From assembly GCA_903959905.1 (NCBI GenBank), contig CAJBYO010000005.1, positions 20,674 to 84,673 on the forward strand: DNA of 64,000 nucleotides. The letters are read 5' to 3'. The position numbers were made by a program, and so were the translations under genes. Positions 6,834 through 50,298 of this stretch are shown here, one piece after another (position 1 is the stretch's first letter; every line of letters begins with the position of its first letter). Under the pieces are notes generated by a model that saw only the letters and a program-made list of their open reading frames with translations, searched no databases and was not told where the DNA came from. Source of the stretch: an uncultured Bacteroidales bacterium. Its GTDB lineage: Bacteria > Bacteroidota > Bacteroidia > Bacteroidales > FEN-979.

Positions 6834-6910
6834 CTCTGTGGTTCTCTGTGTCTTCTCTGTGTACCTCTGTGTAACCAATTCATTACACAGAGGGTCACAG
6901 AGAAAAAGAG
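6834..6910. repeat. CTCTGTG-unit hairpin element (copy 1)
   Basis: Four tandem CTCTGTG-containing units followed by inverted TACACAGAG / CACAGAG. 6855-6863 pairs with 6884-6892. Confidence 0.7.
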
Positions 6911-6990
6911 TGTGCAAGCATTTTTTGTGCAATAATGAAGTCACAGAAAGTAATAAAGTTGTAATTTTCGGAGGATCATTTAACAAGGCT

Positions 6991-9900
6991 ATGCGGGGTA
7001 TCTTTTTATTGCTTTTTTTTATCTTTTATGGTGGCGTATTATCGGGCCAGAACCCCGACCTGGTGTTCCATCATATCACGGAACACGAGGGGCTCAGCAA
7101 CAATATCGTGAATTGTTTTCTGAAGGACAGCCGCGGATTTTTGTGGATTGGCACCTACAACGGGCTGAACCGCTATGACGGCAGCAGTTTTACCATTTTC
7201 AAACAGGGGAAAGACAGTTGTACCATGGCTGACAATACAGTTCATTCCTTGTGTGAGGATACGAATGGCAACATCTGGGGCGCCAACGAAAGGGGTATAT
7301 TCTGCTATGTGATAAAGGATAATATTTTCAGGAACTATTTCATCCCCAAAAAAGAAGATATCCCCAGCATACATAATATTCTCTGCGACCGGAAGGGTAT
7401 CATCTGGGCGGGAGGATACTCCGGATTGTACAGGTATGATTCTTCAAAAGACAGCCTGGTAGAATGCGGGAGCCAGTCATACCTGAAGCGTTCTGCCTAT
7501 GATAAACGGGTTGTTAAAAACGGCATGATTGAAGATCCTTCCGGGAATGGCTTCTGGCTTGCATCTCCAAGGGGCTTGAAATATTTTAATAAAGCGACAC
7601 AACAATATTGTGACTTTTCAACACCCGGGGGAGGCGAATTATTCAAAGATCATTTTATTTCGGCGTTGAATAAGTCGCCTGAAGGGCATTTCTGGTTTTT
7701 TGATAACATCAGCCTTCAGATTATCGGCTTTGACCCGGCCAGCAGAAAAATTCTGAAGGTGATCCGGCTGGATGATCAATACAAAAATTTTTTCGGCTCA
7801 ACCATTTTTGAAGATAATGAGCATAATATCTGGTTCTCAAGCTGGTCGTATGACATATTGAAGATTTCCTATAAAGGATCACTCAGAATGGAACTGGTCA
7901 AACACAATTCTTCAGATCGGACTACCATTGCCGGGGATTTTTTCTGGGCTGCATGGCAGGACAGTGAAAACACCATCTGGCTTGGAACCGTGGGCGGTAT
8001 TTCAAAGATCAACCTCCGGCAGTTGTTTTATAAACGGTATGATCTGTCGGAAACTGTATTTCCCGAAAAAAAAGGTGTTCAGTTCAATACACTGGTGGAG
8101 GATGATTCTGACCTCAGCTGGTGGATCGGATTTGAATATGACAACAGGCTGCTGCATTATTTTCCCGAAACGGGCTCATTTGACTTCTTTCCTTTACCTG
8201 TCAATGCCCGGGGGCAATCTCAGGGAATTTATTCAATCACAAAACTTGAAAAGGACTTGCTGCTGACTGCTGCCAGTGGCACATGGATATTTAACACAAT
8301 TCGTAAACAGTTTAAACGGTTAAATACAGGTATCCCGGCCATCGATACCCTTAAATTCAGCCGGTTATCAAAGGCGAATGATACATCATACTGGTTTAAC
8401 AATCCGTCCTTTATCATAAACTGGAATCCGGTTGCACACAGATTCCGCCGTTTTACGGCTGATCCGCAGAAAAATAAGCAGCAGGGGTACATTCGCTGCG
8501 TAAGGTCTGCCGGTAAAGATGCCGTCTGGATGGCGCTTAAATATACGGACCTGGGCTATACTTCAGGCACAAGTGACCGGATTACTCAGATTTCGCTGGA
8601 TGAAAGCGATATGGGATATCAATCAGGTTTTATCTGGGACTTATGTACTGACCGGAATGGAACGGTATGGATGGCTAATAAAGGACGCGGTTTGATCTCA
8701 TATAAACCCGTCAGCAAAAAAGTGAAAATATGGGATGAATCAAAAGGCCTTGCATTTAATCATATCCAGGCTGTCATGGCAGATGCCGACAACAGAATAT
8801 GGACGGCAGCCTATAATAAGATTTCAATTTTCAACCAGGTAACGGGTAATTTTTTTAACCTTTCACTGCCATTCACCACCAACTATTACGACTATCGCAA
8901 TGTCATGGTAACCCTTCATAACGGTCACATCATCACCAACCTGAACGGTTTGCTTTTCGAATTTTTTCCCGAACGCCTTAACACCAAACCTATTTTCAGG
9001 ACACCGTTGATAAGTTCAATCAACGATGGTTCCTCTGAAATCCTTGTTTCCGGAAAGCGCTCATTTACTTTCGCGTCGGACAGGAGATTTCTGGCTGTCA
9101 ATTTCGGCATGCTGTCAGACCCGGAGAACTTTCCGTTTTCGTTCGAATACCGGATGGATGGGTTAAGCGATCAGTGGATCGATGCCGGCAAAGCGTCGCA
9201 GGCGGTGTTTGCGCACCTGTCGCCCGGCAAGTATACATTCCGGATAAAAGCAGTGGCCAAAGACCATTCATGGCAGTCGAATGAGACCTCCATTACAGTC
9301 ATCATCAAAACACCCTTTTTCCAGCAGATCTGGTTTTTATCACTGGTAAGTATTCTGATCATTTCTGCAGTTGTTCTTTTTTTCCGGTTCAGGATCAGAC
9401 ACAAGGAAAAACTGATGATGCTGGAAAGCAGGGCCCAGATGCTGGAAAAGGAAAAGACGCTTGTGCTGTACGAAAGCCTGAAGCAACAGCTGAATCCCCA
9501 TTTTCTTTTCAATTCGCTGACCTCGCTGTCGGGACTGATTGAATCAGATCAGAACCTGGCCGGTAAATTTCTTGACCAGATGTCGCGGATCTACCGGTAC
9601 CTTCTGAAAAACCGAAACAGTGATGTGGTGACACTGAAAGAAGAAATAGATTTTGTGCGGCTGTACATTCATATACAGCAGACGCGGTTTAAAGACGGAT
9701 TAAAGGTCTCTCTGCGTGTGGAGGATGAAAACATGTACAGTAAAATTGCACCTGTCACCCTCCAGAACATGCTTGAGAATGCAATAAAGCATAATATCTG
9801 TAATCCGGATTCACCTTTATACATTGATATTTACACAGAGCAGGACTATATAGTTATTAAAAATAATATTCAGCGAAAAAAAGTTGTTGAAACTTCCAAC

Positions 9901-10008
9901 AAACAGGGTTTGCAGAACTTCAAGTCGCTGTACAAATTTATCAGCAACAACCCGATTATTGTGCTGGAGGAAGAAGAGTTTTTTTATGTAAAAATCCCGC
10001 TTGTCTAA
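6991..10008 (+). CDS. Sensor histidine kinase with periplasmic two-component-regulator propeller/Y_Y_Y domain and LytS-type His_kinase domain
   Basis: ATG 6991 (MRGIFLLLFFIF, signal/TM). Repeated GL.N..V....D..G.(I/L)W(I/F)GT propeller motifs, a TM segment FLSLVSILIISAVVLFF, then QLNPHFLFNSL (PF06580-type) and an N-box LENAIKHN. The ORF-track extension from 6838 runs through a repeat element. Confidence 0.85.
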   Translation: MRGIFLLLFFIFYGGVLSGQNPDLVFHHITEHEGLSNNIVNCFLKDSRGFLWIGTYNGLNRYDGSSFTIFKQGKDSCTMADNTVHSLCEDTNGNIWGANERGIFCYVIKDNIFRNYFIPKKEDIPSIHNILCDRKGIIWAGGYSGLYRYDSSKDSLVECGSQSYLKRSAYDKRVVKNGMIEDPSGNGFWLASPRGLKYFNKATQQYCDFSTPGGGELFKDHFISALNKSPEGHFWFFDNISLQIIGFDPASRKILKVIRLDDQYKNFFGSTIFEDNEHNIWFSSWSYDILKISYKGSLRMELVKHNSSDRTTIAGDFFWAAWQDSENTIWLGTVGGISKINLRQLFYKRYDLSETVFPEKKGVQFNTLVEDDSDLSWWIGFEYDNRLLHYFPETGSFDFFPLPVNARGQSQGIYSITKLEKDLLLTAASGTWIFNTIRKQFKRLNTGIPAIDTLKFSRLSKANDTSYWFNNPSFIINWNPVAHRFRRFTADPQKNKQQGYIRCVRSAGKDAVWMALKYTDLGYTSGTSDRITQISLDESDMGYQSGFIWDLCTDRNGTVWMANKGRGLISYKPVSKKVKIWDESKGLAFNHIQAVMADADNRIWTAAYNKISIFNQVTGNFFNLSLPFTTNYYDYRNVMVTLHNGHIITNLNGLLFEFFPERLNTKPIFRTPLISSINDGSSEILVSGKRSFTFASDRRFLAVNFGMLSDPENFPFSFEYRMDGLSDQWIDAGKASQAVFAHLSPGKYTFRIKAVAKDHSWQSNETSITVIIKTPFFQQIWFLSLVSILIISAVVLFFRFRIRHKEKLMMLESRAQMLEKEKTLVLYESLKQQLNPHFLFNSLTSLSGLIESDQNLAGKFLDQMSRIYRYLLKNRNSDVVTLKEEIDFVRLYIHIQQTRFKDGLKVSLRVEDENMYSKIAPVTLQNMLENAIKHNICNPDSPLYIDIYTEQDYIVIKNNIQRKKVVETSNKQGLQNFKSLYKFISNNPIIVLEEEEFFYVKIPLV

Positions 10009-10018
10009 CCTGAAATCT

Positions 10019-10792
10019 ATGAAAGCACTGATCATTGAGGACGAAGAAATTATCGCGAATGTCCTTCAGCAGAAGATAAAAAAAGTTGACGATTCGATTG
10101 ATATCATCGCCAAACTTCCCAGTTTAAAAACCGCACGCAAATGGTTCACCTCCAATGCGGAACCTGATATGATTTTTATGGATATCCAGTTGTCCGACGG
10201 AGTAAGTTTTGACCTGCTGGAGCAGTTTACGCTTACCTGTCCGATTGTCTTTACCACCGCATATGATGAATATGCCGTGCGGGCCATCAAGTTGAACGGA
10301 GCGGATTACCTGCTGAAGCCGGTTGATGATGAAGAGCTGAAGAGAGCGATCATCAAATGCAAAAAAATTGTTGAAAACCAGAATCGGCCGCCTTTGGACC
10401 TGATGAACCTGGTGAAGAGCATCATGCATCCAAATGAGCAAAACAGCATATTCAAAGAAAAGTTTGTTGTGAACAGCCGCAATCAGTGGGTGATCATTAA
10501 TACAAAAGAGATTGCGCTCCTTACCAAAGATGCCCTGAATTATATTTACCTCTTCAACGGGGAAAGGTACATTCTTGATTATGATACACTGGATGAGCTG
10601 GAAGAGTTGCTCGATCCGAAGCAGTTTTACCGTGCAAACCGGCAGTTTATCATCAATATCGACGCCATCGCGACGCTTAAGCCCTCTCTTAATTCCAAAC
10701 TGGTGGTTAAAATGAAAGTGCCCAACGACAAGTTCGAAATTGACATGAGCCGTGAAAAAACTCCCTTGTTCAGGAAATGGCTGAACCGGTAA
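10019..10792 (+). CDS. LytTR-family DNA-binding response regulator
   Basis: MKALIIEDEE receiver domain (D..DIQL.DG, YLLKP) plus a C-terminal LytTR-like domain. ATG lies 11 nt after the kinase stop. Confidence 0.9.
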   Translation: MKALIIEDEEIIANVLQQKIKKVDDSIDIIAKLPSLKTARKWFTSNAEPDMIFMDIQLSDGVSFDLLEQFTLTCPIVFTTAYDEYAVRAIKLNGADYLLKPVDDEELKRAIIKCKKIVENQNRPPLDLMNLVKSIMHPNEQNSIFKEKFVVNSRNQWVIINTKEIALLTKDALNYIYLFNGERYILDYDTLDELEELLDPKQFYRANRQFIINIDAIATLKPSLNSKLVVKMKVPNDKFEIDMSREKTPLFRKWLNR

Positions 10793-10911
10793 CGGCATTT
10801 TGTTAATTAATCCCCCCTTTCCTGTATTCCCTTTTCCTCTTTTTCTGATTAACCGGTAATTGCCGGTAAAATAAAACATTCTTTGTGCTACGTTAGCAGG
10901 AATAATACGAT

Positions 10912-10969
10912 CTCCGTGGTCCTCTGTGTCTTCTCCGTGTACCTCTGTGCAACAAATATTTACACGGAG
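10912..10969. repeat. CTCYGTG-unit hairpin element (copy 2, same orientation as copy 1)
   Basis: Collinear with 6834-6893. 10933-10941 (ctccgtgta) pairs with 10961-10969 (tacacggag). Confidence 0.7.
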
Positions 10970-11126
10970 TCCTGAAACACCTTATCCGGTTTCAGGCACA
11001 CTTCAGCAGCATGTTTCTACAGCTCACCGTAATATATTTCCCCTTCTCTTCTTTACGCTTCAATTTTGCTGCTGTAAATTTCAACATCCGTGAAATTATA
11101 AGCGTAAAAACCTAAAAAAAGAAAAC

Positions 11127-11864
11127 ATGAAAAGATCAATCCTGTCCATACTTTTATCGTTACTTATTTCCGGAGCTGTGCTTGCGCAGGTTGCAGTTAA
11201 TTCCGATGGCTCATTGCCCGATAATTCGGCTATGCTTGACGTTAAATCCACGACGAAAGGATTCCTGCCTCCCCGCATGACGACCGCCCAACGCAACCTG
11301 ATCGGTACACCTGCAGCAGGCCTCACAATTTTTAACACTTCCAAAAACGGAAATGAAACATATAATGGCACCTTCTGGGTAAGCAATACACATTACATCG
11401 GCGAAAGCTATGGCGGAGGTATCGTGTTTTATGTATACGACAACGGGCAGCATGGCTTAATAGCAGCCCCTGACGACCAAAGTGCAGGGATCAGGTGGTT
11501 TGGTGGTTCATTAACTAATACGCGTGCCCGGGCAGATGGTGTTGGAGCCGGATTAAAAAATACGGCAATAATCCTATCCAACCAGGGACCGGTTGATGGT
11601 GCTGCATTTGCAGCAACCATGTGCAACGAATTATCGGTAACGTTTGGTGGTGTTACCTATGGTGACTGGTATCTGCCTTCAAAATATGAATTGAATTTAT
11701 TGTACCTGCAAAAAGCTGTTGTTGGCGGCTTTACCACTGGCTACTATTGGAGTTCCACCGAGTTCAGCGCTTCCAACGCGTGGGACCAGTACTTCTTCAA
11801 TGGCTCCCAGGGCAACTACGGTAAGGGCGACACAGACCATGTGCGTGCTATCCGTGCTTTTTAA
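11127..11864 (+). CDS. Secreted DUF1566 (Lcl C-terminal domain) protein, paralog 1
   Basis: Signal peptide. Conserved [23 protein letters not shown] block. C-terminal [13 protein letters not shown]...YWSSTE...VRAIRAF is typical of DUF1566. Confidence 0.75.
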
Positions 11865-11890
11865 CATTTTTACCATCAAAAAAAAGAACC

Positions 11891-12628
11891 ATGAAAATAC
11901 GTTCCCTTTGTATTACAATGCTTCTGCTTGTCAGCAGCGCATTATCAGCCCAGTTTGGCATCAATAGCGACAACAGTTCCCCCGATCCTTCAGCCATGCT
12001 TGATGTTAAATCGACCAGTAAAGGGTTTTTGCCTCCACGAATGACTACAGCACAACGCGATTTGATAGTTTCGCCTGCTTCCGGACTGACCGTCTATAAC
12101 ATTACCTACAACCGTAATGAAACCTATAGTGGCTCATCCTGGGTGGGAAATATGCATTACATCGGCGAAAACTATGGCGGCGGTATCGTGTTTTACGTTT
12201 ATGATAAGGGGCAGCACGGGTTAATCGCTGCAACTGCCGACCAGAGTGCAGGAATCAGGTGGGAGGGTGGTACCTGGGAAAATACGCGTGCCCGGGCGGA
12301 TGGTATTGGCGCAGGAATAAAAAATACATCCATCATCATCGCCAACCAGGGTGCAATAGACGGCGCTGCATTTGCGGCCACTGTGTGCAACGAATTTTCA
12401 GTAACGGAAGGTGGTGTAACATATGATGGCTGGTATCTGCCTTCATTATATGAATTAAATTTATTGTACTTACAAAAAAACCTGGTGGGAAGCTTTGTCA
12501 TTGACATCTATTGGTCTTCCACCGAGCGCAATGAGACGACCGCATATCTCAAGTCCTTCAACAGTGGCTCCACCATTTACGCGAGTAAGGGTGGCAGCTT
12601 CCTTGTACGCGCTATCCGGGCTTTTTAA
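11891..12628 (+). CDS. Secreted DUF1566 (Lcl C-terminal domain) protein, paralog 2
   Basis: Same 245-aa length and collinear with 11127..11864 (about 70% identical by eye). Confidence 0.75.
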   Translation: MKIRSLCITMLLLVSSALSAQFGINSDNSSPDPSAMLDVKSTSKGFLPPRMTTAQRDLIVSPASGLTVYNITYNRNETYSGSSWVGNMHYIGENYGGGIVFYVYDKGQHGLIAATADQSAGIRWEGGTWENTRARADGIGAGIKNTSIIIANQGAIDGAAFAATVCNEFSVTEGGVTYDGWYLPSLYELNLLYLQKNLVGSFVIDIYWSSTERNETTAYLKSFNSGSTIYASKGGSFLVRAIRAF

Positions 12629-14467: not shown

Positions 14468-15636
14468 TCATCCTTGAAAAACCTTACGTATCCGAATTCC
14501 TTCAGCAAACCGTTGTTCGGCTCGGGGTTCCTGTGCTGTCAACCGAATATTCACGGAGCCTGGCGTTTGCCGGGGAGATGAATATGCTGGAACCAGGGGT
14601 TTTCTTTGCAGCGCTTAAAGAGATGAGTCAACCGCTCTTGTACAGCAATTCAGAGAACTCCACGGAACTTCTTAACCGATACGGGCCGGAACTGGAGGTA
14701 ACAAAAACGTTAAATTTCTTCAAGGATAAAACCAGGTTGCGCGAGATTTTCTCAAAGCTCAATCCCGATGTGTGGTATCTGAAATTCTCATTGGAGGAGC
14801 TTGATGGCCTGGATATTTCAACGGTAAAGATGCCCTTTGTCATTAAACCTGTGCGGGGTTTTGCCAGTATCGGAATTCATTCCGTACACAGTGCGAATGA
14901 CTGGAATTCAGCACTGCAGGGAATAAAGAAAGAGGTCATCCTGATGCGGAATGTCTTTCCAGATGTGGTGGTCAGCCTGGATGAATTTATCATTGAACGT
15001 TTCATCGGGGGCACTGAAATTGCCATTGATGCCTACTTCAATGCGTCGGGAGAACCGGTGATCCTCAACATTCTCACCCATCTGTTCGGGTCAAAATCTG
15101 ATATGAGCGACCGCCTGTACCTGACTTCCGCCGAGATTGTAAGAAAATACCATGGGCCCATTCACCGGTACCTCGAAGAAATTGCAAAACTGCGGGAGCT
15201 TCGCAACTTCCCGTTTCACCTGGAAATGAGGGAAGAGTCGGCAGGTAAGTTTGTGCCGATTGAAATTAACCCGATGCGGTTCATGGGCTTCTGTGTGGCC
15301 GATGTGGAACATTACTTCTACGGCATAAACCCCTATGAATATTACTTCCTGCAGAAAAAACCCGACTGGGATCAGATTCTGAGTACGCGGAATGATAAGT
15401 TTTACGGCATGTTCGGCATTGACATCCCAAAACACCTTGATAAAAGCAAGATCAGGTTCAACTACGAAAAATTCATCGGTCATTTCTCAAAGGTTCTTCA
15501 CTTTCTCAAAACAGATTACACAAAACTCCCGGTGGCAATCTATCTGTTTGCTGAAGTTCAGAAAGAAAATTTCGCTGAATTTGAATCCATACTGTATTCC
15601 GACTTGTCTGAATTTATTGAGTTGGAACAGTGCTAA
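14464..15636 (+). CDS. ATP-grasp domain-containing protein (carboxylate-amine/peptide ligase-like)
   Basis: PFVIKPVRGFASIGIHSV, ..ERFIGGTEIAIDAYF.., and PIEINPMRF are typical ATP-grasp fold blocks. Confidence 0.75.
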   Translation: MIILEKPYVSEFLQQTVVRLGVPVLSTEYSRSLAFAGEMNMLEPGVFFAALKEMSQPLLYSNSENSTELLNRYGPELEVTKTLNFFKDKTRLREIFSKLNPDVWYLKFSLEELDGLDISTVKMPFVIKPVRGFASIGIHSVHSANDWNSALQGIKKEVILMRNVFPDVVVSLDEFIIERFIGGTEIAIDAYFNASGEPVILNILTHLFGSKSDMSDRLYLTSAEIVRKYHGPIHRYLEEIAKLRELRNFPFHLEMREESAGKFVPIEINPMRFMGFCVADVEHYFYGINPYEYYFLQKKPDWDQILSTRNDKFYGMFGIDIPKHLDKSKIRFNYEKFIGHFSKVLHFLKTDYTKLPVAIYLFAEVQKENFAEFESILYSDLSEFIELEQC

Positions 15637-15722
15637 TGCGTTGAAATAAATAATCTGATGGAACGAAATCAAATTGTAAAATGAACTCTTCCAATGCAAT
15701 TTGAGATCACTGAAATCATTTT

Positions 15723-15824
15723 AACCACAAAGGCGTCAAAGGATGCACAAAGTCGCACAAAGGGTTGGTGAAAAGGAGTAAGTTTCGTGCGCCTTCGTGA
15801 CGTACTTTGTGCGCCTTCGTGGTT
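15723..15824. repeat. AACCAC...GTGGTT long hairpin (CACAAAGG / CCTTCGTG units)
   Basis: Left arm aaccacaaaggcgtcaaagg..cacaaagtcgcacaaagg; right arm ttcgtgcgccttcgtg..ctttgtgcgccttcgtggtt. Lies between convergent genes. Confidence 0.7.
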
Positions 15825-15937
15825 TAATTTTAGTTGACCATGCGTATATGCAGAGGTGGACGATTAATCAAAGAATCATCACAACGACTCTTACCGTATG
15901 CTGAAATTCAGCTTGTAAACAGGTAAAATACCTTTGT

Positions 15938-16840
15938 CTAAGGTAAATCCCTGCCCGTGGATGCATTATATATTTTATACCACTGCTCCAGGGTCATCTC
16001 AATATTGGCAGCCTCAACAGCCAGCCTGAGCCGGTCAATCCGGCCTGAGCCCACGATCGGTAGAATGGTTGCCGGATGTTTCATCAACCAGCTGTATATA
16101 ATCTTATCTGTTGAATCAACCTGAAGCGCATTGGCAACCTCCCACAATGCGCTGGCAATTTTACCGCTTTTTTCATCCTGCGGATTTATCAGCCGGCCAC
16201 CTGCAAGGGGCGACCAGGCCATAGGTTTTATTCTCTCTTTCAGGAAATAATCCATGTTCCCATTGTCGAAATGGTCAAGGCAGTAGGGAGATATCTCCAC
16301 CTGGTTCGTTACCAGTTTATCATCCAGGTATGCATTGAGCATGTCAGATTGCATCGGGTTGAAATTGGAAACCCCGAAATGCAGGACTTTCCCCTGTGAT
16401 TTCAACACTGAAAATGCTTTTGCAACGGCCTCCGGGTCAAAAAACGGAGCCGGGCGGTGAAGGAGGAGCAGGTCAATGTGGTCGGTGCCAAGATTTTCCA
16501 GGGAGTTCTCTACCGATGAAATGATATGTTCAAAGCTATAGTCATAGGTCTTGATCTGCCTTTCAGGATACCTCCCCGATTTCAGTTTTATGCCGCATTT
16601 GGTCACGATCTCAATCTGGTTCCGGATACCGGGATCCAGCCTTAATGCATCGCCAAAAAGCTTTTCGCAGCTGTAATCGCCATAAATATCGGCGTGATCA
16701 ATGGTGGTGATTCCAAGTTCAATGGCCTGCCGGGTGAGGTTAAGCAGTTCCTGAGCAGGTAAATTCCAGCTGGCGAGTCGCCAGTGACCGTGCACGATCC
16801 GTGATAATTCAAGGTCAGCGGTAAGTTTTATTCTGTGCAT
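15938..16840 (-). CDS. Aldo/keto reductase (YdhF-like oxidoreductase)
   Basis: GITTIDHADIYGDY, LLLHRPAP, GVSNF and other AKR signature blocks. Confidence 0.9.
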   Translation of the reverse strand: MHRIKLTADLELSRIVHGHWRLASWNLPAQELLNLTRQAIELGITTIDHADIYGDYSCEKLFGDALRLDPGIRNQIEIVTKCGIKLKSGRYPERQIKTYDYSFEHIISSVENSLENLGTDHIDLLLLHRPAPFFDPEAVAKAFSVLKSQGKVLHFGVSNFNPMQSDMLNAYLDDKLVTNQVEISPYCLDHFDNGNMDYFLKERIKPMAWSPLAGGRLINPQDEKSGKIASALWEVANALQVDSTDKIIYSWLMKHPATILPIVGSGRIDRLRLAVEAANIEMTLEQWYKIYNASTGRDLP

Positions 16841-16930
16841 TTTTACGACATATTAGGATTAGAGGAGCAAAAGTAAGGGTTTTGCGAACTAGGATTAAGG
16901 ATTGCATGAGAAATCCGGAAGCGATTTTTT

Positions 16931-17094
16931 TACCGCAGAGACGCAGAGACGCTGAGAAAAGGAGTTAATTGAGGTGTGTAATTAAGTCCATGTTTCAGGG
17001 TTTACCAAACAAAAAAGAAAAGGTTATACCTTTCTTATGTTAACTCTGTCCCTCTGCGCCTCTGCGGTTATATATTCTGCGTCTCTGCGGTTAA
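16931..17094. repeat. ACCGCAGAG...CTCTGCGGT hairpin element with ~85-nt loop and an extra right-arm copy
   Basis: Left arm taccgcagagacgcagagacgctgagaa at 16931-16958. Right arms 17044-17070 and 17075-17094 (..tctctgcggttaa). Confidence 0.65.
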
Positions 17095-17174
17095 ATTTTC
17101 TGCTATTTACTTATCCTCAATAAAATTTTTTACCTTCCACTGCAATAAAACCATCCCACCCCGTCTATAACATC

Positions 17175-17720
17175 ATGGAAAAGGAAATTCAAAAAAAGTC
17201 GCTTGACAAATTCTTCCGCAATGAGTACCAGAAACTGGTGGGCTATATCAGGAAGAACCTTGACGACCGCTATTTTGAAGCCTCCCCGGAAGACATCATA
17301 CAGGACGTTGCACTGGGACTGATCGATAAACTTGACCTGGATGTCCAGATCAGCAACCTCACCGGCTACATCTACCGGTCGGTGAAGAACAGGATCATCG
17401 ATTACCAGAAGAAAAAACAGCGGAATGTATCGATTGAGCGCTTCACGGACAAAAACAACGAGAATTATTTACATAATACACTGACTGATGAAACCTTAGA
17501 AGAAAACAAATATGAAAATATAGCACCGGAAATGCTCCGGCAGGCTATATCGGAACTGAGGCCCGATGAACAGGCGCTGATCATGGCCACCGAATTTGAT
17601 CATCAAACCTATGAAGAACTTTCGGAGGAGTGGGATGTACCGATGGGTACACTGCTGTCGCGCAAGCACCGGACCTTATCAAAATTACATAAGATATTAT
17701 TAAACATTCAAAAACAATAA
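17175..17720 (+). CDS. RNA polymerase sigma-70 family (ECF-type) sigma factor
   Basis: Region 2 (IIQDVALGLIDK..YIYRSVKNRIIDYQKK) and region 4 (YEELSEEWDVPMGTLLSRKHRTLSKL). Confidence 0.85.
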   Translation: MEKEIQKKSLDKFFRNEYQKLVGYIRKNLDDRYFEASPEDIIQDVALGLIDKLDLDVQISNLTGYIYRSVKNRIIDYQKKKQRNVSIERFTDKNNENYLHNTLTDETLEENKYENIAPEMLRQAISELRPDEQALIMATEFDHQTYEELSEEWDVPMGTLLSRKHRTLSKLHKILLNIQKQ

Positions 17721-21866: not shown

Positions 21867-21970
21867 AAACCACGAAGGCGACAAAGGATGGCACGAAGGC
21901 GCACGAAGGAGGGTTCCAAATCAGAAAAACTTTGTGCGACTTAGTGTGTACTTTGTCGCCTTTGTGGTTT
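21867..21970. repeat. AACCAC...GTGGTT long hairpin, inverted orientation relative to 15723-15824
   Basis: The outer 20 nt (21867-21886 / 21951-21970) pair with a single G.T. Inner unit 21901-21908 pairs with 21930-21937. Confidence 0.7.
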
Positions 21971-24845: not shown

Positions 24846-24934
24846 ATTTGCGCGGTTTTATGCGCAAATTCACCCAGAGGCGCAGGGAAAAGTATTGTAT
24901 ATCAATCCTCTGCGTCTCTGCGTCTCTGCGGTTA
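24846..24934. repeat. Small palindrome plus a degenerate ACCCAGAGG...CTCTGCGGT element
   Basis: atttgcgc 24846-24853 / gcgcaaat 24862-24869. acccagaggcgcaggg 24872-24887. cctctgcgtctctgcgtctctgcggtta 24907-24934. Confidence 0.6.
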
Positions 24935-38739: not shown

Positions 38740-38840
38740 AACCACTGAGGCACGGAGGGCACTTAGAAACACTGAGAATTTGTTGTATACGGGTTGAGTT
38801 ATTCTTAGTGGTCCTCGGTGCCCTCCGTGCCTCAGTGGTT
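38740..38840. repeat. AACCAC...GTGGTT long hairpin (CACTGAGG/CACGGAGG units)
   Basis: 38740-38762 is perfectly complementary to 38818-38840 (23 bp). Further imperfect pairing continues inward. A T-run follows on the + strand. Confidence 0.75.
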
Positions 38841-44307: not shown

Positions 44308-45001
44308 GGTTAATGGAACACAGGTGACGCTGATGTGGCAGATTTACACTGTTTTGGGGGACCGAAGAAAGTTGACTGGGATAGATCTGAACTGTGATTT
44401 AGTTAAATATGTTACCATTATCAGCAAATAGACAGAAATCACTTATGGGTGAATATTTTGCGGCGGATTTCGGGTTCTTTGCCGAAATTAAGGAGTAAAC
44501 CGATTTCAAAATCAGTTGCCTTTAGGTAATTAATCAGTTGAGCTTCATGTTCGGGTCGCAATGATTCTGCTGCTTTGATTTCAACAATGATTTTGTCTTC
44601 AACAGTCAGGTCGGCGTAATAATCCCCAACGACCTGGTTGGCATAATAGACTGAAATTGGTTTCTGTTTTTCAACTTTGAAGCCAAAATTTTCAAGTTCT
44701 ATTCTCAGAGAATTTTCATATACCTTTTCGAGGAATCCATAACCAAGTTTATTGTATACAGTGTAAAAGCACCTGATTATTTCTGAGGATAGATCCTGAT
44801 GCAGGTATTCCATGGTTTAATCAGCTAAAAATTGAAAGTGATGATTAATATAAATGGAAGGAATTAGGATTAATGGAACACAGATGACGCTGGTGATACA
44901 GATTTTCACTGATTTATTTCTTGGTTGACAGGTAGAATAACTATTTTTAGATCTTCACGAACCAAACAGTGTCATCAGTTCAATCAGTGTCATCTGTGTT
45001 C
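44308..45001. mobile_element. Repeat-bounded cassette carrying the GxxExxY ORF
   Basis: A ~44-nt direct repeat (44308-44351 and 44868-44911). Arm gaacacaggtgacgctg at 44316-44332 and gaacacagatgacgctg at 44876-44892 are both complementary to cagtgtcatctgtgttc at 44985-45001. Confidence 0.5.
44439..44813 (-). CDS. GxxExxY protein (PD-(D/E)XK-like, PDDEXK_3 family)
   Basis: LGYGFLEKVYENSL (GxxExxY motif), ADLTVEDKIIVEIKA, EAQLINYLKAT. Confidence 0.85.
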   Translation of the reverse strand: MEYLHQDLSSEIIRCFYTVYNKLGYGFLEKVYENSLRIELENFGFKVEKQKPISVYYANQVVGDYYADLTVEDKIIVEIKAAESLRPEHEAQLINYLKATDFEIGLLLNFGKEPEIRRKIFTHK

Positions 45002-45003
45002 TA

Positions 45004-46020
45004 TTACATCGCAATATCTGATCGGATGCTCTCAAGTTCTAACAACAGTTCCATCGTTTGTTCAACATCAAGCTGCCTTGTATTATGCGAAGTATAATCA
45101 TCTGAACCAGCAACCTTCTGCTCTCCTTCTGTAAAAAACTTGTTGTAATTCAAATCGCGGTTATCTGCCGGGATGCGGAAGTAGGCGTCCATGTCGATGG
45201 CTTTCACCATCTCTTCCCGGTTTACCAGGGTCTCATAGAGTTTTTCGCCATGGCGTGTACCGATTATACTGACGGGATTGGAGGCCTTGTACAGCCCGAG
45301 AAGTGCCCGGGCAAGCACATCAATGGTGGCGGCGGGTGCCTTCTGAACAAAGATATCCCCGTTCGAACCGTGCTCAAAGGCAAACAGCACCAGGTCGACG
45401 GCGCTTTCAAGGGTCATCATGAACCGGGTCATGTTCGGGTCGGTGAGGGTGAGGGGCTGGCCGCTTTTGATCTGGTCAATGAGTAGCGGGATCACCGAGC
45501 CACGGGAGGCCATCACGTTGCCATACCTGGTACCGCAGAAAACAGTACCGCTCCCGTTGAGGTTGCGTGAGCGGGCCACCATCACCTTTTCACTCAGGGC
45601 CTTCGACAATCCCATGGCATTAATCGGATAGACCGCCTTATCTGTGCTTAAAACAACGACGTTTTTCACCCCGTTCTCCAGGGCACTGTCAAGTACGTTC
45701 TCGCAACCCATCACGTTGGTTCTCACGGCTTCCATGGGGAAAAACTCGCAGGAAGGGACCTGCTTCAGGGCAGCGGCATGAAACACATAGTCAACACCGC
45801 GCAGGGCATTGTCAAGGCTGCGTTTGTCGCGTACGTCGCCAATATAATACTTGATCTTGTCATTCCGGTAATGCTGGCGCATGTCATCCTGCTTCTTTTC
45901 ATCCCGGCTGAAAATCCGGATCTCCCTGAAAAGGTCGGTGTGCAAAAAACGGGCAAGGGTGGCGTTGCCGAATGAACCGGTGCCGCCGGTTATTAAAAGA
46001 ATATCGTTGGGGGTGATCAT
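45004..46020 (-). CDS. fnlA: CapE/FnlA-like UDP-N-acetylglucosamine 4,6-dehydratase/5-epimerase
   Basis: ILLITGGTGSFGNA, IRIFSRDEKKQDDMR, YIGDVRD, VDYVFHAAALKQVPSCEFFP, GTRYGNVMASRGSVIPL. Nearly collinear with S. aureus CapE as I remember it. Confidence 0.9.
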   Translation of the reverse strand: MITPNDILLITGGTGSFGNATLARFLHTDLFREIRIFSRDEKKQDDMRQHYRNDKIKYYIGDVRDKRSLDNALRGVDYVFHAAALKQVPSCEFFPMEAVRTNVMGCENVLDSALENGVKNVVVLSTDKAVYPINAMGLSKALSEKVMVARSRNLNGSGTVFCGTRYGNVMASRGSVIPLLIDQIKSGQPLTLTDPNMTRFMMTLESAVDLVLFAFEHGSNGDIFVQKAPAATIDVLARALLGLYKASNPVSIIGTRHGEKLYETLVNREEMVKAIDMDAYFRIPADNRDLNYNKFFTEGEQKVAGSDDYTSHNTRQLDVEQTMELLLELESIRSDIAM

Positions 46021-46026
46021 TGGGTT

Positions 46027-46453
46027 CTTAGATTTAAGTTTTAAGTATTAAGTTTTAAGGTTTGGCGATTTGGGTTTTAGGGAGTTTATTAAGCCCTGGA
46101 GCATGGCGGAGATTTCTTTGGTTTCGGTGATTAATGGCCTGGTTATTTAGGAGGGTAGAATCCCGATTTTTTCTGCTAAATAGATTTGTGTTCGCCGCTC
46201 GGCTGCTGATCCTTTGGCTATATGTAAAAAACGCACATATTCTTTGGTTGTATCTCTTTCTGCACCTTCTGCTATGTTTGAAGGAATCGATATGGATAAC
46301 CTTGTCATCTGGTCCCTCAGCCCAAATTCCTTACAATCTTTTAAAACAGTATAAACTTCAACCGCAAGTTTGCAGGACCGCTTCCAAACTTCAAGATCTT
46401 CAAACGAACGATAAGCCATGCACTTAAAACTTAAAACTTAATACTTAAAACTG
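46027..46453. mobile_element. Hairpin-bounded cassette carrying the four-helix-bundle ORF
   Basis: 46037-46059 (agttttaagtattaagttttaag) is perfectly complementary to 46430-46452. The arms are built of TTAAGTTT-type octamers. The cassette fills the tviC-stop to fnlA-start junction. Confidence 0.55.
46147..46419 (-). CDS. Four-helix-bundle protein (23S rRNA intervening-sequence protein family, PF05635-like)
   Basis: MAYRSFEDLEVWKRS..LAVEVY.......F.LRDQM.R...SIPSNIAEG..R....E...FL.IA.GS..E. Confidence 0.85.
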   Translation of the reverse strand: MAYRSFEDLEVWKRSCKLAVEVYTVLKDCKEFGLRDQMTRLSISIPSNIAEGAERDTTKEYVRFLHIAKGSAAERRTQIYLAEKIGILPS

Positions 46454-47446
46454 TTTTTTCAGATTCTTCCAGTACCATTCCACCGCAATTTCCAACCCCT
46501 GCTCAAGGTTATATTCGGGCTTATATCCCAGGATTGTCACGGCTTTTTCAATGGATGCATGGGAATGGGGGATGTCGCCTTTGCGGTTGGGGCTGCAGGT
46601 GACGGGTATGCCGGCGATCGCCGGGTCAAAAGCTGCAAGATATTTTTTCAGCAGGGCGGTAAGCTGGTTGAGGTCGTTACGTTCCCCCACGGCTGTGTTG
46701 AATACCTGGTTGATGGCCAGTGGGTTTGTTGTGATGGCGGCCAGGTGGTTCATCTGGACAACGTTGTCAACAAAGGTAAAGTCGCGGGAGTTGGTGCCGT
46801 CGCCGAAAATTCCGGGGGATTCATGGGCCATCAGCAACATGGTGAATTTTGGGATCACCGCGGCATACGCACCCTGTGGGTCCTGTTTCGGGCCGTAAAC
46901 GTTGAAATAACGCAGGCCGATGGTGTCCAGTCCGTAGTTGAGGGCAAATACATGGGCATAGAGTTCATTCACATATTTGGTGACGGCATAGGGTGAGAGC
47001 GGCATTCCGATGTTTTGTTCCACCTTGGGAAGGGTCTCCGAATCGCCGTAGGTGGAGGAACTTGCGGCATAAACAAACCGCCTGACACCAGCATCACGCG
47101 AGGCAACAAGCATGTTGAGAAAGCCCCCGACGTTGACCTCGTTTGTCGTAACAGGATCAATGATGGAGCGCGGAACCGATCCAAGCGCGGCTTCGTGCAG
47201 CACAATGTCTATGCCTTCCGCGGCTTTCCGGCAATCCTCAGGGTTCCTGATGTCGCCAACAATCAGCTTGAATTTAGGATGATCACTGAAGGCTGCCAGG
47301 TTCTCTATGCGACCGGTGGAGAAGTTATCAAGGCAGATCACTTCATTTTCATTCCTGAGCAGGTCTTCACAGAGATTTGACCCGATAAAACCGGCGCCGC
47401 CGGTGACGAGGATGCGGGAGGAGGTTATTTTAGGGTAAGGATACAA
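46445..47446 (-). CDS. tviC: NAD-dependent epimerase (TviC/WbpP-like UDP-GlcNAc(A) 4-epimerase)
   Basis: ILVTGGAGFIGSNLCEDLL, VICLDNFSTGR..NL, YAASSSTYGD, SPYAVTKY. The start is a TTG at 47446 lying on the boundary of a repeat arm. Confidence 0.85.
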   Translation of the reverse strand: MYPYPKITSSRILVTGGAGFIGSNLCEDLLRNENEVICLDNFSTGRIENLAAFSDHPKFKLIVGDIRNPEDCRKAAEGIDIVLHEAALGSVPRSIIDPVTTNEVNVGGFLNMLVASRDAGVRRFVYAASSSTYGDSETLPKVEQNIGMPLSPYAVTKYVNELYAHVFALNYGLDTIGLRYFNVYGPKQDPQGAYAAVIPKFTMLLMAHESPGIFGDGTNSRDFTFVDNVVQMNHLAAITTNPLAINQVFNTAVGERNDLNQLTALLKKYLAAFDPAIAGIPVTCSPNRKGDIPHSHASIEKAVTILGYKPEYNLEQGLEIAVEWYWKNLKKQF

Positions 47447-47610
47447 GTTTTAAGTTTTAAGTATTAAGATTTAAGGGGGTTTTGCTTTGAGGATATGGAG
47501 TTTAGGAGGCCGTGGGTGTTTTATTATAGTTCGTATCTTTTCAAGATTTCAGTCTTTTCAAACGCCCGATAAGCCCTACTTAAAACTTAAATCTTAAAAC
47601 TTAAAACTTC
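47445..47610. repeat. Cargo-less copy of the TTAAGTTT hairpin cassette with a remnant of the four-helix-bundle gene 5' end
   Basis: Arms 47445-47478 and 47574-47610 (~28/31 complementary). 47540-47576 (ttcaagatttcagtcttttcaaacgcccgataagccc) is homologous to 46390-46419, but the ATG is lost. Confidence 0.6.
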
Positions 47611-47612
47611 TT

Positions 47613-48953
47613 CTATACCCTTCCTGATATCTCGCTCCGGTCAACAATCCCTTTAATATCGTAAAGTACGGATGGGGTTTTTCGTAATTTTTTAAGGTTG
47701 AGTTTCTTGAACTTATCGTGGGCGACTGCGAGGATAACGGCGTCGTAGTGGGAAACGCGTGACGCGTGACGCGTGACAGGTGACGGTAGTTCAGTGAGAA
47801 GGTCAAGAGCATATTCATGTTTGACTTCGGCTGGGCTGGCCCAGGGGTCGTATATGTCGACCCGGCAGCCGTAGTCCTGCAGTTCGGTGATAACATCAAT
47901 GACTTTGGAGTTGCGGATGTCGGGGCAGTTCTCCTTAAACGTGATCCCGAGAACCAGCACATGACTTTTATTTACAGGGATCTCCTGCCTGATCATCAGT
48001 TTGACAACCTGACCTGCGATCCAGGCGCCCATCGTATCGTTCATCCTGCGACCCGCCAGGATAATCTCAGGATGATAACCGGCCTCCTGTGCCCTTTGGG
48101 CTAGATAGTATGGGTCAACGCCGATACAATGTCCGCCTACCAGGCCGGGTTTGAATTTAAGGAAGTTCCATTTGGTTCCGGCGGCTTCCAGCACATCACC
48201 AGTGTCAATTTTAAAGTGGCTGCATATCCTGGCGATCTCGTTCACGAACGCGATGTTGATGTCGCGCTGTGAATTTTCAATGACTTTCGCCATTTCAGCC
48301 ACCCTGATGGAGGCGGCCTTGAAAGTGCCGGCTTTTACGACGGTATTGTATAGGTCATCAACAAAGCTGGCTACCTGCGGGGTTGATCCGGAGGTGACTT
48401 TTCGGATGGTTGTGAAGGTATGTTCCTTGTCGCCCGGGTTGATCCTTTCGGGAGAATACCCGGCAAAAAAATCTTTGTTGAATTTCAAGCCGGAACTCTT
48501 TTCAATCATGGGGATGCAGTCATCTTCAGTACATCCCGGGTATACCGTTGATTCATAAATTACCACAGCGCCCCGTGAAATTACTTTGCCGATGGCTTCA
48601 CTCGCCTTGATCAGGGGTGTAAGATCCGGTCTGTTGTTCTTGTCGACCGGTGTGGGTACAGTGACAATGAATACGTTACATGCTTTCAGGTGATCCGGGT
48701 CTGACGTGATCAGTAACCCGTTGGCCGAGTTTTTATTTTTCTTTTCTGTCCGCAGCACAGATACGAGATTGTCGTCTGACACTTCCAGTGTTGAATCGTG
48801 GCCGTCGTTCAGTTCCCTGACTCTGCCGGCATTGATATCATAACCTGCAACCGGGAATTTCTTTGCGAATTCCACGGCCATGGGAAGTCCAACGTAACCA
48901 AGGCCGATAACGGCGATAACGGGTTCTTTGATGAGGGGGAGGGTTGGTGTCAT
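47613..48953 (-). CDS. tviB: Nucleotide-sugar dehydrogenase (TviB/WbpO-like UDP-GlcNAc/GalNAc 6-dehydrogenase)
   Basis: ATG 48953 (MTPTLPLIKEPVIAVIGLGYVGLPMAVEF). GGHCIGVDPYYL. The track extension to 49049 runs through a tandem-repeat leader. The C-terminal part contains an in-frame heptad array (47757-47784). Confidence 0.85.
   Translation of the reverse strand: MTPTLPLIKEPVIAVIGLGYVGLPMAVEFAKKFPVAGYDINAGRVRELNDGHDSTLEVSDDNLVSVLRTEKKNKNSANGLLITSDPDHLKACNVFIVTVPTPVDKNNRPDLTPLIKASEAIGKVISRGAVVIYESTVYPGCTEDDCIPMIEKSSGLKFNKDFFAGYSPERINPGDKEHTFTTIRKVTSGSTPQVASFVDDLYNTVVKAGTFKAASIRVAEMAKVIENSQRDINIAFVNEIARICSHFKIDTGDVLEAAGTKWNFLKFKPGLVGGHCIGVDPYYLAQRAQEAGYHPEIILAGRRMNDTMGAWIAGQVVKLMIRQEIPVNKSHVLVLGITFKENCPDIRNSKVIDVITELQDYGCRVDIYDPWASPAEVKHEYALDLLTELPSPVTRHASRVSHYDAVILAVAHDKFKKLNLKKLRKTPSVLYDIKGIVDRSEISGRV
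47757..47784. repeat. Four tandem heptamers (GCGTGAC x3, AGGTGAC) inside the tviB coding sequence
   Basis: Read directly. On the - strand they encode ..PVTRHASRV.. within the C-terminal part of TviB. Confidence 0.8.
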
Positions 48954-48961
48954 AAGGATGA

Positions 48962-49038
48962 GCTGATGTGTTAACGTGTTGATATGCTGATGTGTTGATG
49001 AACTGATAGCTAATGGCTGACAGCTGACAGCTGACAGC
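48962..49038. repeat. Tandem short-unit repeats in the tviB leader (GCTGATGTGTT x2, GCTGACA x3)
   Basis: 48962-48972 and 48986-48996; 49016-49038 gctgacagctgacagctgacagc. Confidence 0.75.
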
Positions 49039-49107
49039 TTCCAGGGCATAGCTTCGCCCGGTCGGTCACAGGGCCAATACCAAGTATCAAAGATTTTTTA
49101 CTGATGG

Positions 49108-49115
49108 CAAAGTTA
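49108..49115 (-). promoter_or_regulatory. Bacteroidota -7 box (TAnnTTTG) for the tviB operon
   Basis: The reverse complement reads taactttg. The ~150-nt leader would contain the tandem GCTGACA/GCTGATG units. Confidence 0.3.
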
Positions 49116-49139
49116 ATTATTTTGAAGGGCTGGCAAATG

Positions 49140-49718
49140 CTAATAGTTTGATTCGCGCATTTGCATGTAGGCTTTCGGGTGTAGGCACGCGGGGCAGTTT
49201 TCGAGCGCTTTCTCCGACTCATACACATAGCCGCAATTGAGGCATTTCCACCACACTTTGCCATCTTTCATGAACACTTTGTCTTCTGAAACATTCTGCA
49301 GCAGTTTAAGATATCGGCGTTCATGTTCAGCCTCAACTTTTGCGATCATTTTAAATGCGGTGGCTACTTCCATGAAACCTTCCTCTTTTGCAACTTCGGC
49401 AAAATGGGGGTAGAGTTCAACCCACTCTTCGTGTTCGCCCTCGGCGGCAGCTTTCAGGTTTTCCTTTGTGGTGCCGATGATGCCGGCAGGGAACCCGGCT
49501 GTGATTTCGGTCAGACCTCCCTCAAGGAATTTGAAAAACCTCTTTGCATGTTCCTTCTCCTGGTTTGAAGTTTCCATGAAGATGGCAGCAATTTGCTCAT
49601 ATCCTTCCTTTTTTGCCACACTGGCGAAAAATTCGTAGCGGTTGCGCGCCTGCGATTCACCGGCAAAAGCCTTGAGCAGGTTAAGTTCGGTGAGAGTCCC
49701 TTTAAGTGATTTTGACAT
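49140..49718 (-). CDS. rbr: Rubrerythrin
   Basis: Ferritin-like E..E..H pairs plus a C-terminal rubredoxin CxxC...CxxC (CLNCGY..CPAC). Confidence 0.9.
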
Positions 49719-49741
49719 AGTGTTGGGTTTTAGTGAAAGGA

Positions 49742-49873
49742 ATTTACGATTGGACGATTGAGAGATTGCAGATTGAATTGTTAAATTTCCGATTGACGAT
49801 TGATAGCGCTATCAATCGTAGATCATCAATCGTTAAATTCAATCTGCAATCTCTCAATCGTCTAATCGTAAAT
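49742..49873. repeat. 132-nt near-perfect palindrome (TTTACGATTG-type units)
   Basis: 49742-49779 pairs with 49836-49873 (38 nt, 1 G.T). Central palindrome tgatagcgctatca is centred at 49807/49808. The element ends 3 nt before the pspC stop codon. Confidence 0.8.
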
Positions 49874-49876
49874 CAA

Positions 49877-50074
49877 TTAGTTTCTTGTCGGTTCTTCCGG
49901 AATAATGATCCACGATATCAGGTAGGCGAGGAATCCCATTCCAAAGGCAAAAAATGAAACTGCCCAGAGTACCCTTACGAGCACCGGGTCGAGGGTGAAA
50001 AAGTTTCCAAGTCCGCCGCATACCCCGCCAAGGATGCGGTCGTTTTTTGAACGGTAAAGTCTTTTTGGTTCCAT
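49877..50074 (-). CDS. pspC: PspC-domain membrane protein
   Basis: From ATG 50074: MEPKRLYRSKNDRILGGVCGGLGNFFTLDPVLVRVLW followed by a TM segment. Confidence 0.7.
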   Translation of the reverse strand: MEPKRLYRSKNDRILGGVCGGLGNFFTLDPVLVRVLWAVSFFAFGMGFLAYLISWIIIPEEPTRN

Positions 50075-50211
50075 GGTGATATGATAATTTGAATGTGATT
50101 GATTGAGGGTTAGATGCACCTTCATTTTATCCGTTACAAATCTAATCAAATAAATTATTTGTTTTATGGGGCAGTCAAGCCATGGGTAAATGGCATTCTC
50201 AAAAGTTTTTT

Positions 50212-50298
50212 TACCGCAGAGGCGCAGAGTCGCAGAGGATTTTGGTATTGTTTATAATAAAGTTGAATCTGCTTTGCGTATCTGCGTCTCTGCGGTTA
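50212..50298. repeat. ACCGCAGAG...CTCTGCGGT hairpin element
   Basis: Left arm taccgcagaggcgcagagtcgcagagg at 50212-50238; right arm tctgctttgcgtatctgcgtctctgcggtta at 50268-50298. Confidence 0.7.

Follow-up and report, generated by a model that had tools for sequence, protein, structure and literature searches.

Eight intergenic hairpins, each built from tandem 7-nt cores, lie in the 64,000-nt stretch of DNA analysed here, which comes from an uncultured Bacteroidales bacterium (contig CAJBYO010000005.1, positions 20,674 to 84,673; hereafter the window). An initial annotation, made from the sequence alone, had grouped them as one structural superfamily. We consider it probable, at roughly 60%, that they are members lacking an open reading frame (ORF) of a family of selfish hairpin cassettes of the type found as intervening sequences (IVSs) in 23S rRNA, and that such very small palindromic elements are widespread. 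The arms follow one architecture, are spread over many bacterial phyla and one genus of archaea, bracket genes of a nuclease family, and match in type the clade of the nuclease that they enclose. Each arm is a module made of a TTnAC terminus and then 2–4 tandem 7-nt cores at 8–11-nt spacing, with CRCNRAG cores in the eight hairpins and CRCNGAT, AAGTTTT and other cores elsewhere. Two inverted modules enclose either a short unrelated loop or one small gene, which usually encodes a PD-(D/E)XK nuclease of the GxxExxY family and sometimes a 23S_rRNA_IVP/Avd-like four-helix-bundle protein. The first observation is confirmed and greatly extended, and the empty hairpins do not look like purpose-built RNA structures.

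Paired modules in the window and across phyla

All eight hairpins were found where the initial annotation had placed them, with the units that it had described, and every base pair that it quoted was verified, including the perfect outer stem of 38740–38840 (Table 1). Tandem CRCNRAGR arrays numbered nine in the window compared with 0.1 in shuffles and were confined to these elements, and seven of the eight had a fold energy 4–13 standard deviations below that of dinucleotide shuffles. No ORF was present inside any of them. The annotation had also singled out a direct compensatory pair in the hairpin at 6834–6910 and its decayed homologue at 10912–10969. The quoted segments are indeed reverse complements (CTCTGTGTA at 6855–6863 of 6884–6892, and CTCCGTGTA at 10933–10941 of 10961–10969), but the register of the pair is ambiguous, because in the minimum-energy fold of 6834–6910 the segment at 6884–6892 pairs with the neighbouring unit at 6865–6874.

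The elements extend far beyond the window. With one genome taken per species, the exact pattern ACCGCAGAGNCGCAGAGNCGC gave at least 120 matches, where about 4 were expected by chance. Among the matches listed, the hosts belong to the Acidobacteriota, Planctomycetota, Cyanobacteria, Chloroflexota, Alpha-, Beta-, Gamma- and Deltaproteobacteria, Verrucomicrobiota, Spirochaetota, Bacteroidota and candidate phyla, and the pattern was also present in 19 viral contigs. A pattern of three CACAAAG units likewise gave at least 120 matches. Its carriers include the complete isolate genomes of Calothrix NIES-4105 and PCC 7716, Desulfonema magnum and Alkalitalea saponilacus and, among the matches listed, bins of Methanothrix, the one archaeal genus. 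The complete genome of Draconibacterium orientale is a further carrier of the elements. A blastn search of PLSDB with a query made of repeats alone gave no match, probably an effect of the low-complexity filter. The records listed for the CGCAGAG pattern all came from metagenome bins, and several cultured isolates were among those found with CACAAAG; this difference could reflect ecology, the order of the scan or the behaviour of assemblies at repeats.

The cross-phylum hairpins are 52–295 nt long, with identical arms and unrelated loops, and several unit types co-occur in a genome (CGCGGAG, CACAGAG, CGCAAAG, CGCCAAG and more). In 531 modules, a TTnAC terminus precedes the first core, the period is mostly 8–9 nt and there are usually three units, which gives the scheme TTnAC-CRCNRAG-n-CRCNRAG and so on. 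The purine-rich arm comes first in 117 hairpins and second in 13; Pyrinomonadaceae typically have this second, inverse form, the interior of which reads GGTT-loop-AACC. At three loci from Pyrinomonadaceae and other Acidobacteriota (L055, L060 and L161), head-to-head modules read units-GGTT, a 12–43-nt loop and AACC-units. They take up almost the whole spacer, ending about 7 nt short of the flanking stop codons, whether the neighbouring genes are convergent, tandem or divergent. At two further loci (L102 and L294) the two arms of a hairpin are of different types, CGCAGAG or CACAAAG on one side and CTTTGCG or CTCTGTG on the other, so that one strand of the stem is rich in G.U pairs and the opposite strand in A.C pairs. 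Abundance is patchy and lineage-specific among relatives: the window has 0.14 arrays per kb, and relatives (844 kb) have 0.018 per kb, about 8-fold fewer. The closest genomes are about 80% identical at the protein level, and orthologous spacers were compared by position only.

We examined arm pairing in 77 distinct hairpins from many phyla, using the outer 24 nt of each arm and 500 shuffles. Paired cells made up 86.5% of the total compared with 73.6% in shuffles and 34–52% when the partner was slid, and double-change cells numbered 301 compared with 131, a count that none of the 500 shuffles reached. These values bear out the claim of a superfamily with common termini and co-varying arms. At the family-defining positions the arms agreed in 122 of 129 and 118 of 129 hairpins (70 expected); retrieval was by one arm only, and the arms therefore co-vary. 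The initial annotation went further and proposed that selection acts on the fold rather than on the sequence. This is not supported, as conservation between phyla extends to the sequence of the 7-nt core and of the TTnAC terminus.

Inside a single family the pattern is different in kind. In the CGCAGAG family the outermost spacer co-varies (54 of 81 compared with 38.6 expected), and neither the second spacer nor the second unit's variable base shows covariation. Differences in this family are A/G transitions, which leave G.T on one strand and A.C on the other and are uncompensated. The better-folding, G.U-favoured strand bore no relation to the direction of the flanking genes (8 versus 10 in ++ and 9 versus 9 in −− contexts). 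This result bears on the polarity that the annotation had assigned to two hairpins from such mismatches. The positions are as it reported, A/C at 15729/15818, 15749/15796 and 15759/15786 of one hairpin (15723–15824) and G/T at 21874/21963 and 21905/21933 of the other (21867–21970), but the proposed check against flanking gene direction came out negative. Because the G.U-favoured strand is unrelated to gene direction, the apparent polarity is more likely to be neutral drift than orientation. The data fit arms whose complementarity is present from the start or is maintained for the pair as a unit, with drift afterwards, rather than selection on one RNA strand; covariation lies between families whose two arms were inherited together.

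An alternative is that the hairpins are bidirectional transcription terminators or stabilisers of mRNA 3′ ends, selected for their RNA fold. Very stable stems, the significant covariation of the arms, an excess of convergent over divergent spacers among the cross-phylum hairpins (32 versus 10) and the T7 run directly after the stem of 38740–38840 speak for it. However, that hairpin is the sole one of the eight to have such a run, the other seven lacking it, and a terminator scan called none of the eight, with counts equal to those in shuffles, in a scan that scores loops of 3–8 nt only. The hairpin at 16931–17094 lies between divergent genes, G.U pairs show no bias towards the sense strand, differences within families go uncompensated, and the density falls steeply in relatives. 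We regard this explanation as decidedly unlikely.

Two resemblances were considered and set aside as probable coincidences: the 3′-arm units recall the elemental pause motif of RNA polymerase, and GGTTCAAAT flanks recall the T-loops of tRNA.

Nuclease genes between matching arms

Arm pairs that lie 380–430 nt apart enclose an ORF of about 125 aa, which is a TIGR04256 GxxExxY/PF13366 PDDEXK_3 protein (E 7e-45). Such arms were of the CGCAGAG (L108, L137), CACAGAG (L093) and CACAAAG (L285, L270) types. The association emerged only through these widely spaced arm pairs: when the ORFs lying up to 8 kb from 139 elements were compared all against all by blastp, no family was enriched, and GxxExxY was missed because only about three loci carried it. 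The annotation had likened the hairpins to REP/MITE-like elements and suggested a search for an associated nuclease, and both were good guesses, in that the same arms bracket PD-(D/E)XK GxxExxY genes.

To counter ascertainment bias, we fetched 80 GxxExxY loci by protein motif alone, aligned the 220 nt upstream of each gene to the reverse complement of the 220 nt downstream, and counted scores of at least 30. Inverted tandem-unit flanks were found at 51 of 77 GxxExxY loci compared with 1.8% of cross-locus controls, with median scores of 37 and 18. The aligned arms were mostly of the CRCNGAT type, with CACGAAG, CACAGAG, CGCCGAG, ACAGGAT and others also present, and stood 4–100 nt from the start and stop codons. 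Among small ORFs with strong inverted flanks in all of the fetched DNA, 27 of 38 were GxxExxY. Nuclease identity was 49–52% within an arm class and 39% between classes, and for 30 of 32 nucleases the nearest neighbour shared the arm class, whatever the phylum of the host. Loop lengths are bimodal (<150 nt and 350–500 nt), with about 30 empty hairpins for each gene-bearing one.

The window holds one such gene, at 44439–44813, bracketed by ACAGATGAC-family arms at 44308–44351 and 44967–45005. Its product scores 145 bits against PF13366 (cut-off 22) and 140.5 bits against TIGR04256 (cut-off 35). The D...ExK motif is invariant and is retained in this gene; the invariant residues are G24, E29, Y32, D68, E78 and K80. 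An AlphaFold2 (AF2) model of the protein (pLDDT 91) gave as its best structural matches Cas4 SSO0001, the LHK and lambda exonucleases and the Hjc Holliday-junction resolvases (TM 0.45–0.59), and judged from this model the product has the PD-(D/E)XK nuclease fold. We found no solved structure related to it by sequence, and PADLOC returned only a marginal Cas4 match. The PDDEXK_3/GxxExxY family comprises at least 7,989 database clusters at E ≤ 1e-8, and a 2012 survey listed PDDEXK_3 as being of unknown function, with ‘multiple transfers, mixed clades’ (PMC3424549). In a Saprospiraceae bin (L452), a GxxExxY cassette (1501–1863) and a 23S_rRNA_IVP (IVP) gene (2984–3346) lie 1.1 kb apart, and ATGAGAT heptamers precede the IVP gene.

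The identity of the bracketed gene also bears on whether the hairpins are repetitive extragenic palindromic (REP) or REPIN elements mobilised by a REP-associated tyrosine transposase (RAYT), an IS200-like Y1 transposase. REPINs are likewise inverted doublets that form long hairpins at gene ends, and one locus (L170) has a Y1_Tnp gene with strong inverted-repeat flanks. By contrast, the arms studied here are not individually palindromic and lack a 5′ GTAG; they consist of tandem 7-nt cores in the form ACC-(CRCNRAG-n)x2-4, no Y1 transposase is present in the window, and the genes that they bracket are overwhelmingly GxxExxY. We find this explanation scarcely credible. In L170, the IS200-like, RAYT-like gene is at 6015–6476, its flanks score 110, and the same genome also has CGCAGAG hairpins; both kinds of element can therefore coexist.

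IVS-protein genes and the case for a selfish cassette

A second gene of the window, brought out by the screen for small ORFs with inverted flanks, is bracketed in the same manner. It encodes an IVP protein and lies between AAGTTTT and AAAACTT arms (Table 1); the Avd protein of diversity-generating retroelements is a homologue of its family, PF05635 (PMC10053308). In Coxiella, the 23S IVS is described as a selfish hairpin of 428 nt with an S23p ORF, in which three tandem GACAGAT heptamers precede the start codon. Strains differ in the number of heptamers, the ORF is in decay and the stem is cut by RNase III (PMC4990558). The functionality and the origin of 23S IVSs have been called unclear (PMC4990558). 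Homologues of the IVP gene in isolates (Reichenbachiella, Salegentibacter, Mesonia, Rhodohalobacter and an archaeon) lie between operon genes. Their heptamer-array flanks are inverted in 3–4 of 6 cases and direct in 1 of 6, which gives qualitative support. No IVP relatives were found in viral contigs.

IVP genes occupy the same fadB-like/thiolase spacer in Salegentibacter, Rhodohalobacter and the metagenome scaffold L511 (loci L507, L509 and L511). The flanks of the Mesonia gene (L508), where the neighbouring genes are uncalled, are nearly identical to those of the fadB-like/thiolase loci. The shared spacer suggests either an old insertion or a preferred site.

The repeats might also be mutational by-products, with slippage building the units and intrastrand template switching perfecting quasi-palindromes, in which case neither mobility nor function would be involved. 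The many unrelated unit families and lone arrays in the same contig, the duplicated right module of 16931–17094 and the strain-variable heptamers of Coxiella (PMC4990558) are what such a process would give. It leaves unexplained, however, why identical 7-nt cores and TTnAC termini recur in more than ten phyla, why the link is to one protein family and why nuclease clade tracks arm type. We consider it very improbable as the whole account, and slippage probably modulates unit number.

We favour a selfish cassette, whose mobility mechanism we infer as follows. The arms would be the recognition substrate of the cognate nuclease, and the cassette would spread when breaks made by this enzyme, or cuts in the extruded hairpin or cruciform, are copied or repaired. 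The far commoner empty hairpins would be non-autonomous copies or products of gene loss. Elements would persist mainly at sites where they do little harm, such as the 3′ ends of genes. If transcribed, their 20–30-bp stems would be substrates of RNase III, a property established for the homologous 23S rRNA IVSs, and effects on host transcripts, such as processing or 3′-end protection, would be secondary.

Several results weigh against a selfish cassette. No transposition or homing was observed: three metagenome contigs with the same tsaE are 100% identical to the window and so give no view of presence/absence polymorphism, and a look-up of strain variants with 59705–62827 gave no match. Direct flank repeats of at least 5 nt, as target-site duplication would leave, occurred in 13.7% of hairpins compared with 15.9% of permuted pairs. 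Remnants of the nuclease gene were found in 1 of 103 empty loops, and the empty hairpins are therefore not simple internal-deletion derivatives. No nuclease gene of the CRCNRAG clade lies in the 64-kb window; the one at 44439–44813 has CRCNGAT-like arms. The activity and specificity of the nuclease are themselves putative. Finally, the excess of convergent sites and the presence of a hairpin upstream of tsaE in the window and of a related one in a relative (L002) could reflect a host function, and can also be explained by selection against promoter disruption and by chance.

A rival view is that the hairpins are primarily host structures (insulators, processing sites or terminators made of tandem units), and that the nuclease and IVP genes are secondary parasites homing into their loops, the match between nuclease and arm type being target specificity. 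The roughly 30:1 ratio of empty to gene-bearing hairpins, the lack of gene remnants and the position of IVP genes between operon genes in several isolates would suit this view, and the correlation of protein with arm equally fits target specificity. Yet the hairpins are patchy among relatives and occur in divergent promoter regions (16931–17094; L060), and an exact sequence common to several phyla is unexpected for structures that evolved in place. On balance we hold a host origin to be unlikely.

A bolder and tentative form of the selfish-cassette reading, possible but in our view doubtful, is that GxxExxY is a sequence- and structure-specific endonuclease for the tandem 7-nt cores of its own extruded arms. 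With these arms it would form the smallest known autonomous palindromic mobile element (about 450 bp), able to pass from one phylum or domain to another. Its MITE-like derivatives would be the empty hairpins, and the 23S rRNA IVSs would be copies inserted by chance into helices of rRNA.

How 23S rRNA IVSs arose and how they move has been an open question since about 1990. Hundreds of empty intergenic hairpins are tied together by one architecture and a common 7-nt core, and cassettes with a nuclease or an IVS-protein gene are built on the same plan in different phyla; this architecture, the cassettes and the match between clade and arm together offer a single testable hypothesis for three puzzles, with enzyme and substrate named. 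There is also a practical side. Hairpin repeats fill up to one third of the larger spacers in such genomes, will confuse the annotation of terminators, small RNAs and repeats, and can break metagenome assemblies.

Other elements of the window and relation to known systems

The host DNA is that of a member of the Bacteroidota: type IX secretion system (T9SS) sorting domains are encoded, and tsaD is 81% and 77% identical to that of Bacteroidales/Marinilabiliales-like bins. GC skew rises across the whole window, and JGI metagenome contigs match it at 100% identity. No tRNA gene and no Rfam family at gathering score was found in the window, matches at E ≤ 5 around 15600–17200 being at chance level only, and there is no rRNA.

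Among the eight hairpins, 6834–6910 stands between genes for a T9SS-tailed protein and a histidine kinase, and shares with 10912–10969 a reversed arm order, with the CTCTGTG arm 5′ and GGTT at the outer left end. The hairpin at 15723–15824 occupies the convergent spacer between an ATP-grasp gene (+) and an aldo-keto reductase (AKR) gene (−), and 16931–17094 the divergent spacer between the AKR gene (−) and an ECF sigma gene (+). Inverted-repeat and tandem-repeat scans, together with folding of all spacers, brought out more hairpins of the same build but with unrelated units, which the initial annotation had missed (44867–45005, 46030–46453, 47445–47609, 49742–49873 and 53757–53855; Table 1).

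Table 1. Hairpins, arms and bracketed genes of the window
Feature	Coordinates	Strand	Remarks
CTCTGTG x4/CACAGAG x2 hairpin, pyrimidine arm 5′ (inverse polarity)	6834–6910		Fold z about −6.6 to −6.9
Decayed homologue of 6834–6910, four CTC[C/T]GTG units and one CACGGAG partner	10912–10969		Weak fold, z −1.8 to −2.5
AACC-CACAAAGG-type hairpin, four units per arm	15723–15824		
ACCGCAGAG-type hairpin, ~100-nt loop	16931–17094		Right module duplicated (17052–17069, 17076–17094)
AACC-CACGAAGG-type hairpin between tsaD (−) and DUF1295 gene (−)	21867–21970		Fold z −10.6/−8.2
CGCAGAG-type hairpin, left arm decayed	24872–24934		~130 nt upstream of tsaE (−)
AACC-CACTGAGG/CACGGAGG hairpin	38740–38840		23 perfect outer bp; fold z −9.7/−13.1
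Second direct copy of the 44867–44911 arm, downstream of GxxExxY gene	44308–44351		
GxxExxY/PDDEXK_3 nuclease gene, 124 aa	44439–44813	−	TIGR04256 E 2.9e-41, PF13366 E 1.6e-42
ACAGATGAC/ACTGAT-unit hairpin just upstream of GxxExxY gene	44867–45005		Arms 44867–44911 and 44967–45005
AAGTTTT heptamer arm, left bracket of IVP gene	46030–46060		
23S_rRNA_IVP (four-helix-bundle, Avd-like) gene, ~30 aa short at C terminus	46147–46419	−	PF05635 E 1.2e-28; matches PDB 2GSC
AAAACTT heptamer arm, right bracket of IVP gene	46421–46453		Abuts IVP start codon
AAGTTTT/AAAACTT hairpin, 103-nt loop, ORF-less	47445–47609		
132-nt palindrome of CGATTGA-type units, loopless	49742–49873		
ACCGCAGAG-type hairpin, three units per arm	50212–50298		Fold z −8.7/−8.8
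TTACAAATGAC-type unit hairpin in convergent spacer	53757–53855		

A gene for an NAD-dependent epimerase (46445–47446, −) lies between AAGTTTT-family arms of two neighbouring elements (46421–46453 and 47445–47475), and long-range pairing across a housekeeping gene is therefore possible. The palindrome at 49742–49873 adjoins a rubrerythrin gene, with no associated ORF identified, and a 29-nt relative of it (GGGATTTACGATCGTCCAATCGTAAATTT, 52856–52884) lies upstream of the gene at 52918. Lone arrays of 7–9-nt units (GCTGACA, CCCGTCCG, TTTACAT, GACAAGT x7.4 and CATTGTCTG x4.4) occur at 48961–49039, 54896–54946, 54980–55007, 55988–56039 and 56072–56111 with no inverted partner nearby, several of them just upstream of start codons in the manner of the TAACTGA repeats of Beggiatoaceae. 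A gene for a DUF559 protein, a Vsr-like PD-(D/E)XK endonuclease (63227–63655, +), is bracketed by a perfect 48/48 inverted repeat (63086–63133 and 63612–63659), which is G+C-rich (CCCCCTCTCC...GAGAGGGGG) and without tandem units, the downstream copy being the 3′ end of the gene. It is the third small nuclease-type gene in a hairpin bracket within the 64-kb window.

The hairpin family resembles several known systems in part. Intrinsic terminators have a G+C-rich stem with an immediate U-tract, downstream of a gene; of the eight hairpins only 38740–38840 has a T-run. Integron attC sites are imperfect hairpins of 60–140 nt with conserved ends and a variable centre, and about 40% of module termini here read ...AAC/GTT...; the family, however, has neither cassette arrays nor an integrase, its stems are tandem repeats, and it is flanked by core genes of either orientation (tsaD, fusA, kinases and others), whereas attC sites close the cassettes of same-orientation arrays, usually near intI. 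Like miniature inverted-repeat transposable elements (MITEs) and foldback elements, the hairpins are dominated by terminal inverted repeats, their non-autonomous copies outnumber the gene-bearing ones, and their arms consist of tandem subrepeats as in foldback elements. Unlike MITEs, they lack target-site duplications and have unrelated internal sequences; no DDE transposase gene was found in the window.

REP–RAYT systems and REPINs, like the family, consist of short inverted doublets between genes, reach many copies in a genome, sit mostly at gene ends and are tied to an enzyme gene that is present once and has the same repeats on its flanks. Their enzyme is an HUH Y1 transposase and their repeats are REP palindromes, whereas the present family has a PD-(D/E)XK nuclease and tandem 7-nt cores, with arm sequences shared between phyla. 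In a literature search the tandem unit strings had no printed match, and the repeat and hairpin literature led only to work on STRR and TAACTGA repeats. The STRR heptamers of cyanobacteria and the TAACTGA repeats of Beggiatoaceae, Cyanobacteria and Bacteroidetes are intergenic and sporadic, with suspected horizontal spread (PMC4679880). Like the hairpins, they are arrays of 7-nt units scattered sporadically in similar large-genome, often filamentous taxa, but they are described as direct arrays, often just upstream of start codons, whereas in the hairpins the arrays are paired in inverse orientation, have a defined terminus and are linked to a nuclease gene.

The 23S IVSs of Coxiella, Leptospira, Salmonella and others share with the family of the window inverted ends, a long stem and a variable centre that is either empty or holds one ORF, which in the IVSs is a PF05635 protein of about 120 aa and in the window the PF05635 gene between AAGTTTT arms. 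The tandem heptamers beside the ORF start of the Coxiella IVS are a further resemblance, as are the sporadic distribution of IVSs, which suggests horizontal transfer, and their description as selfish (PMC4990558). The two differ in location and cargo: IVSs lie in helix 25 or 45 of 23S rRNA and carry S23p, whereas the elements of the window are intergenic, between protein genes, and the usual cargo of their family is the PD-(D/E)XK GxxExxY nuclease.

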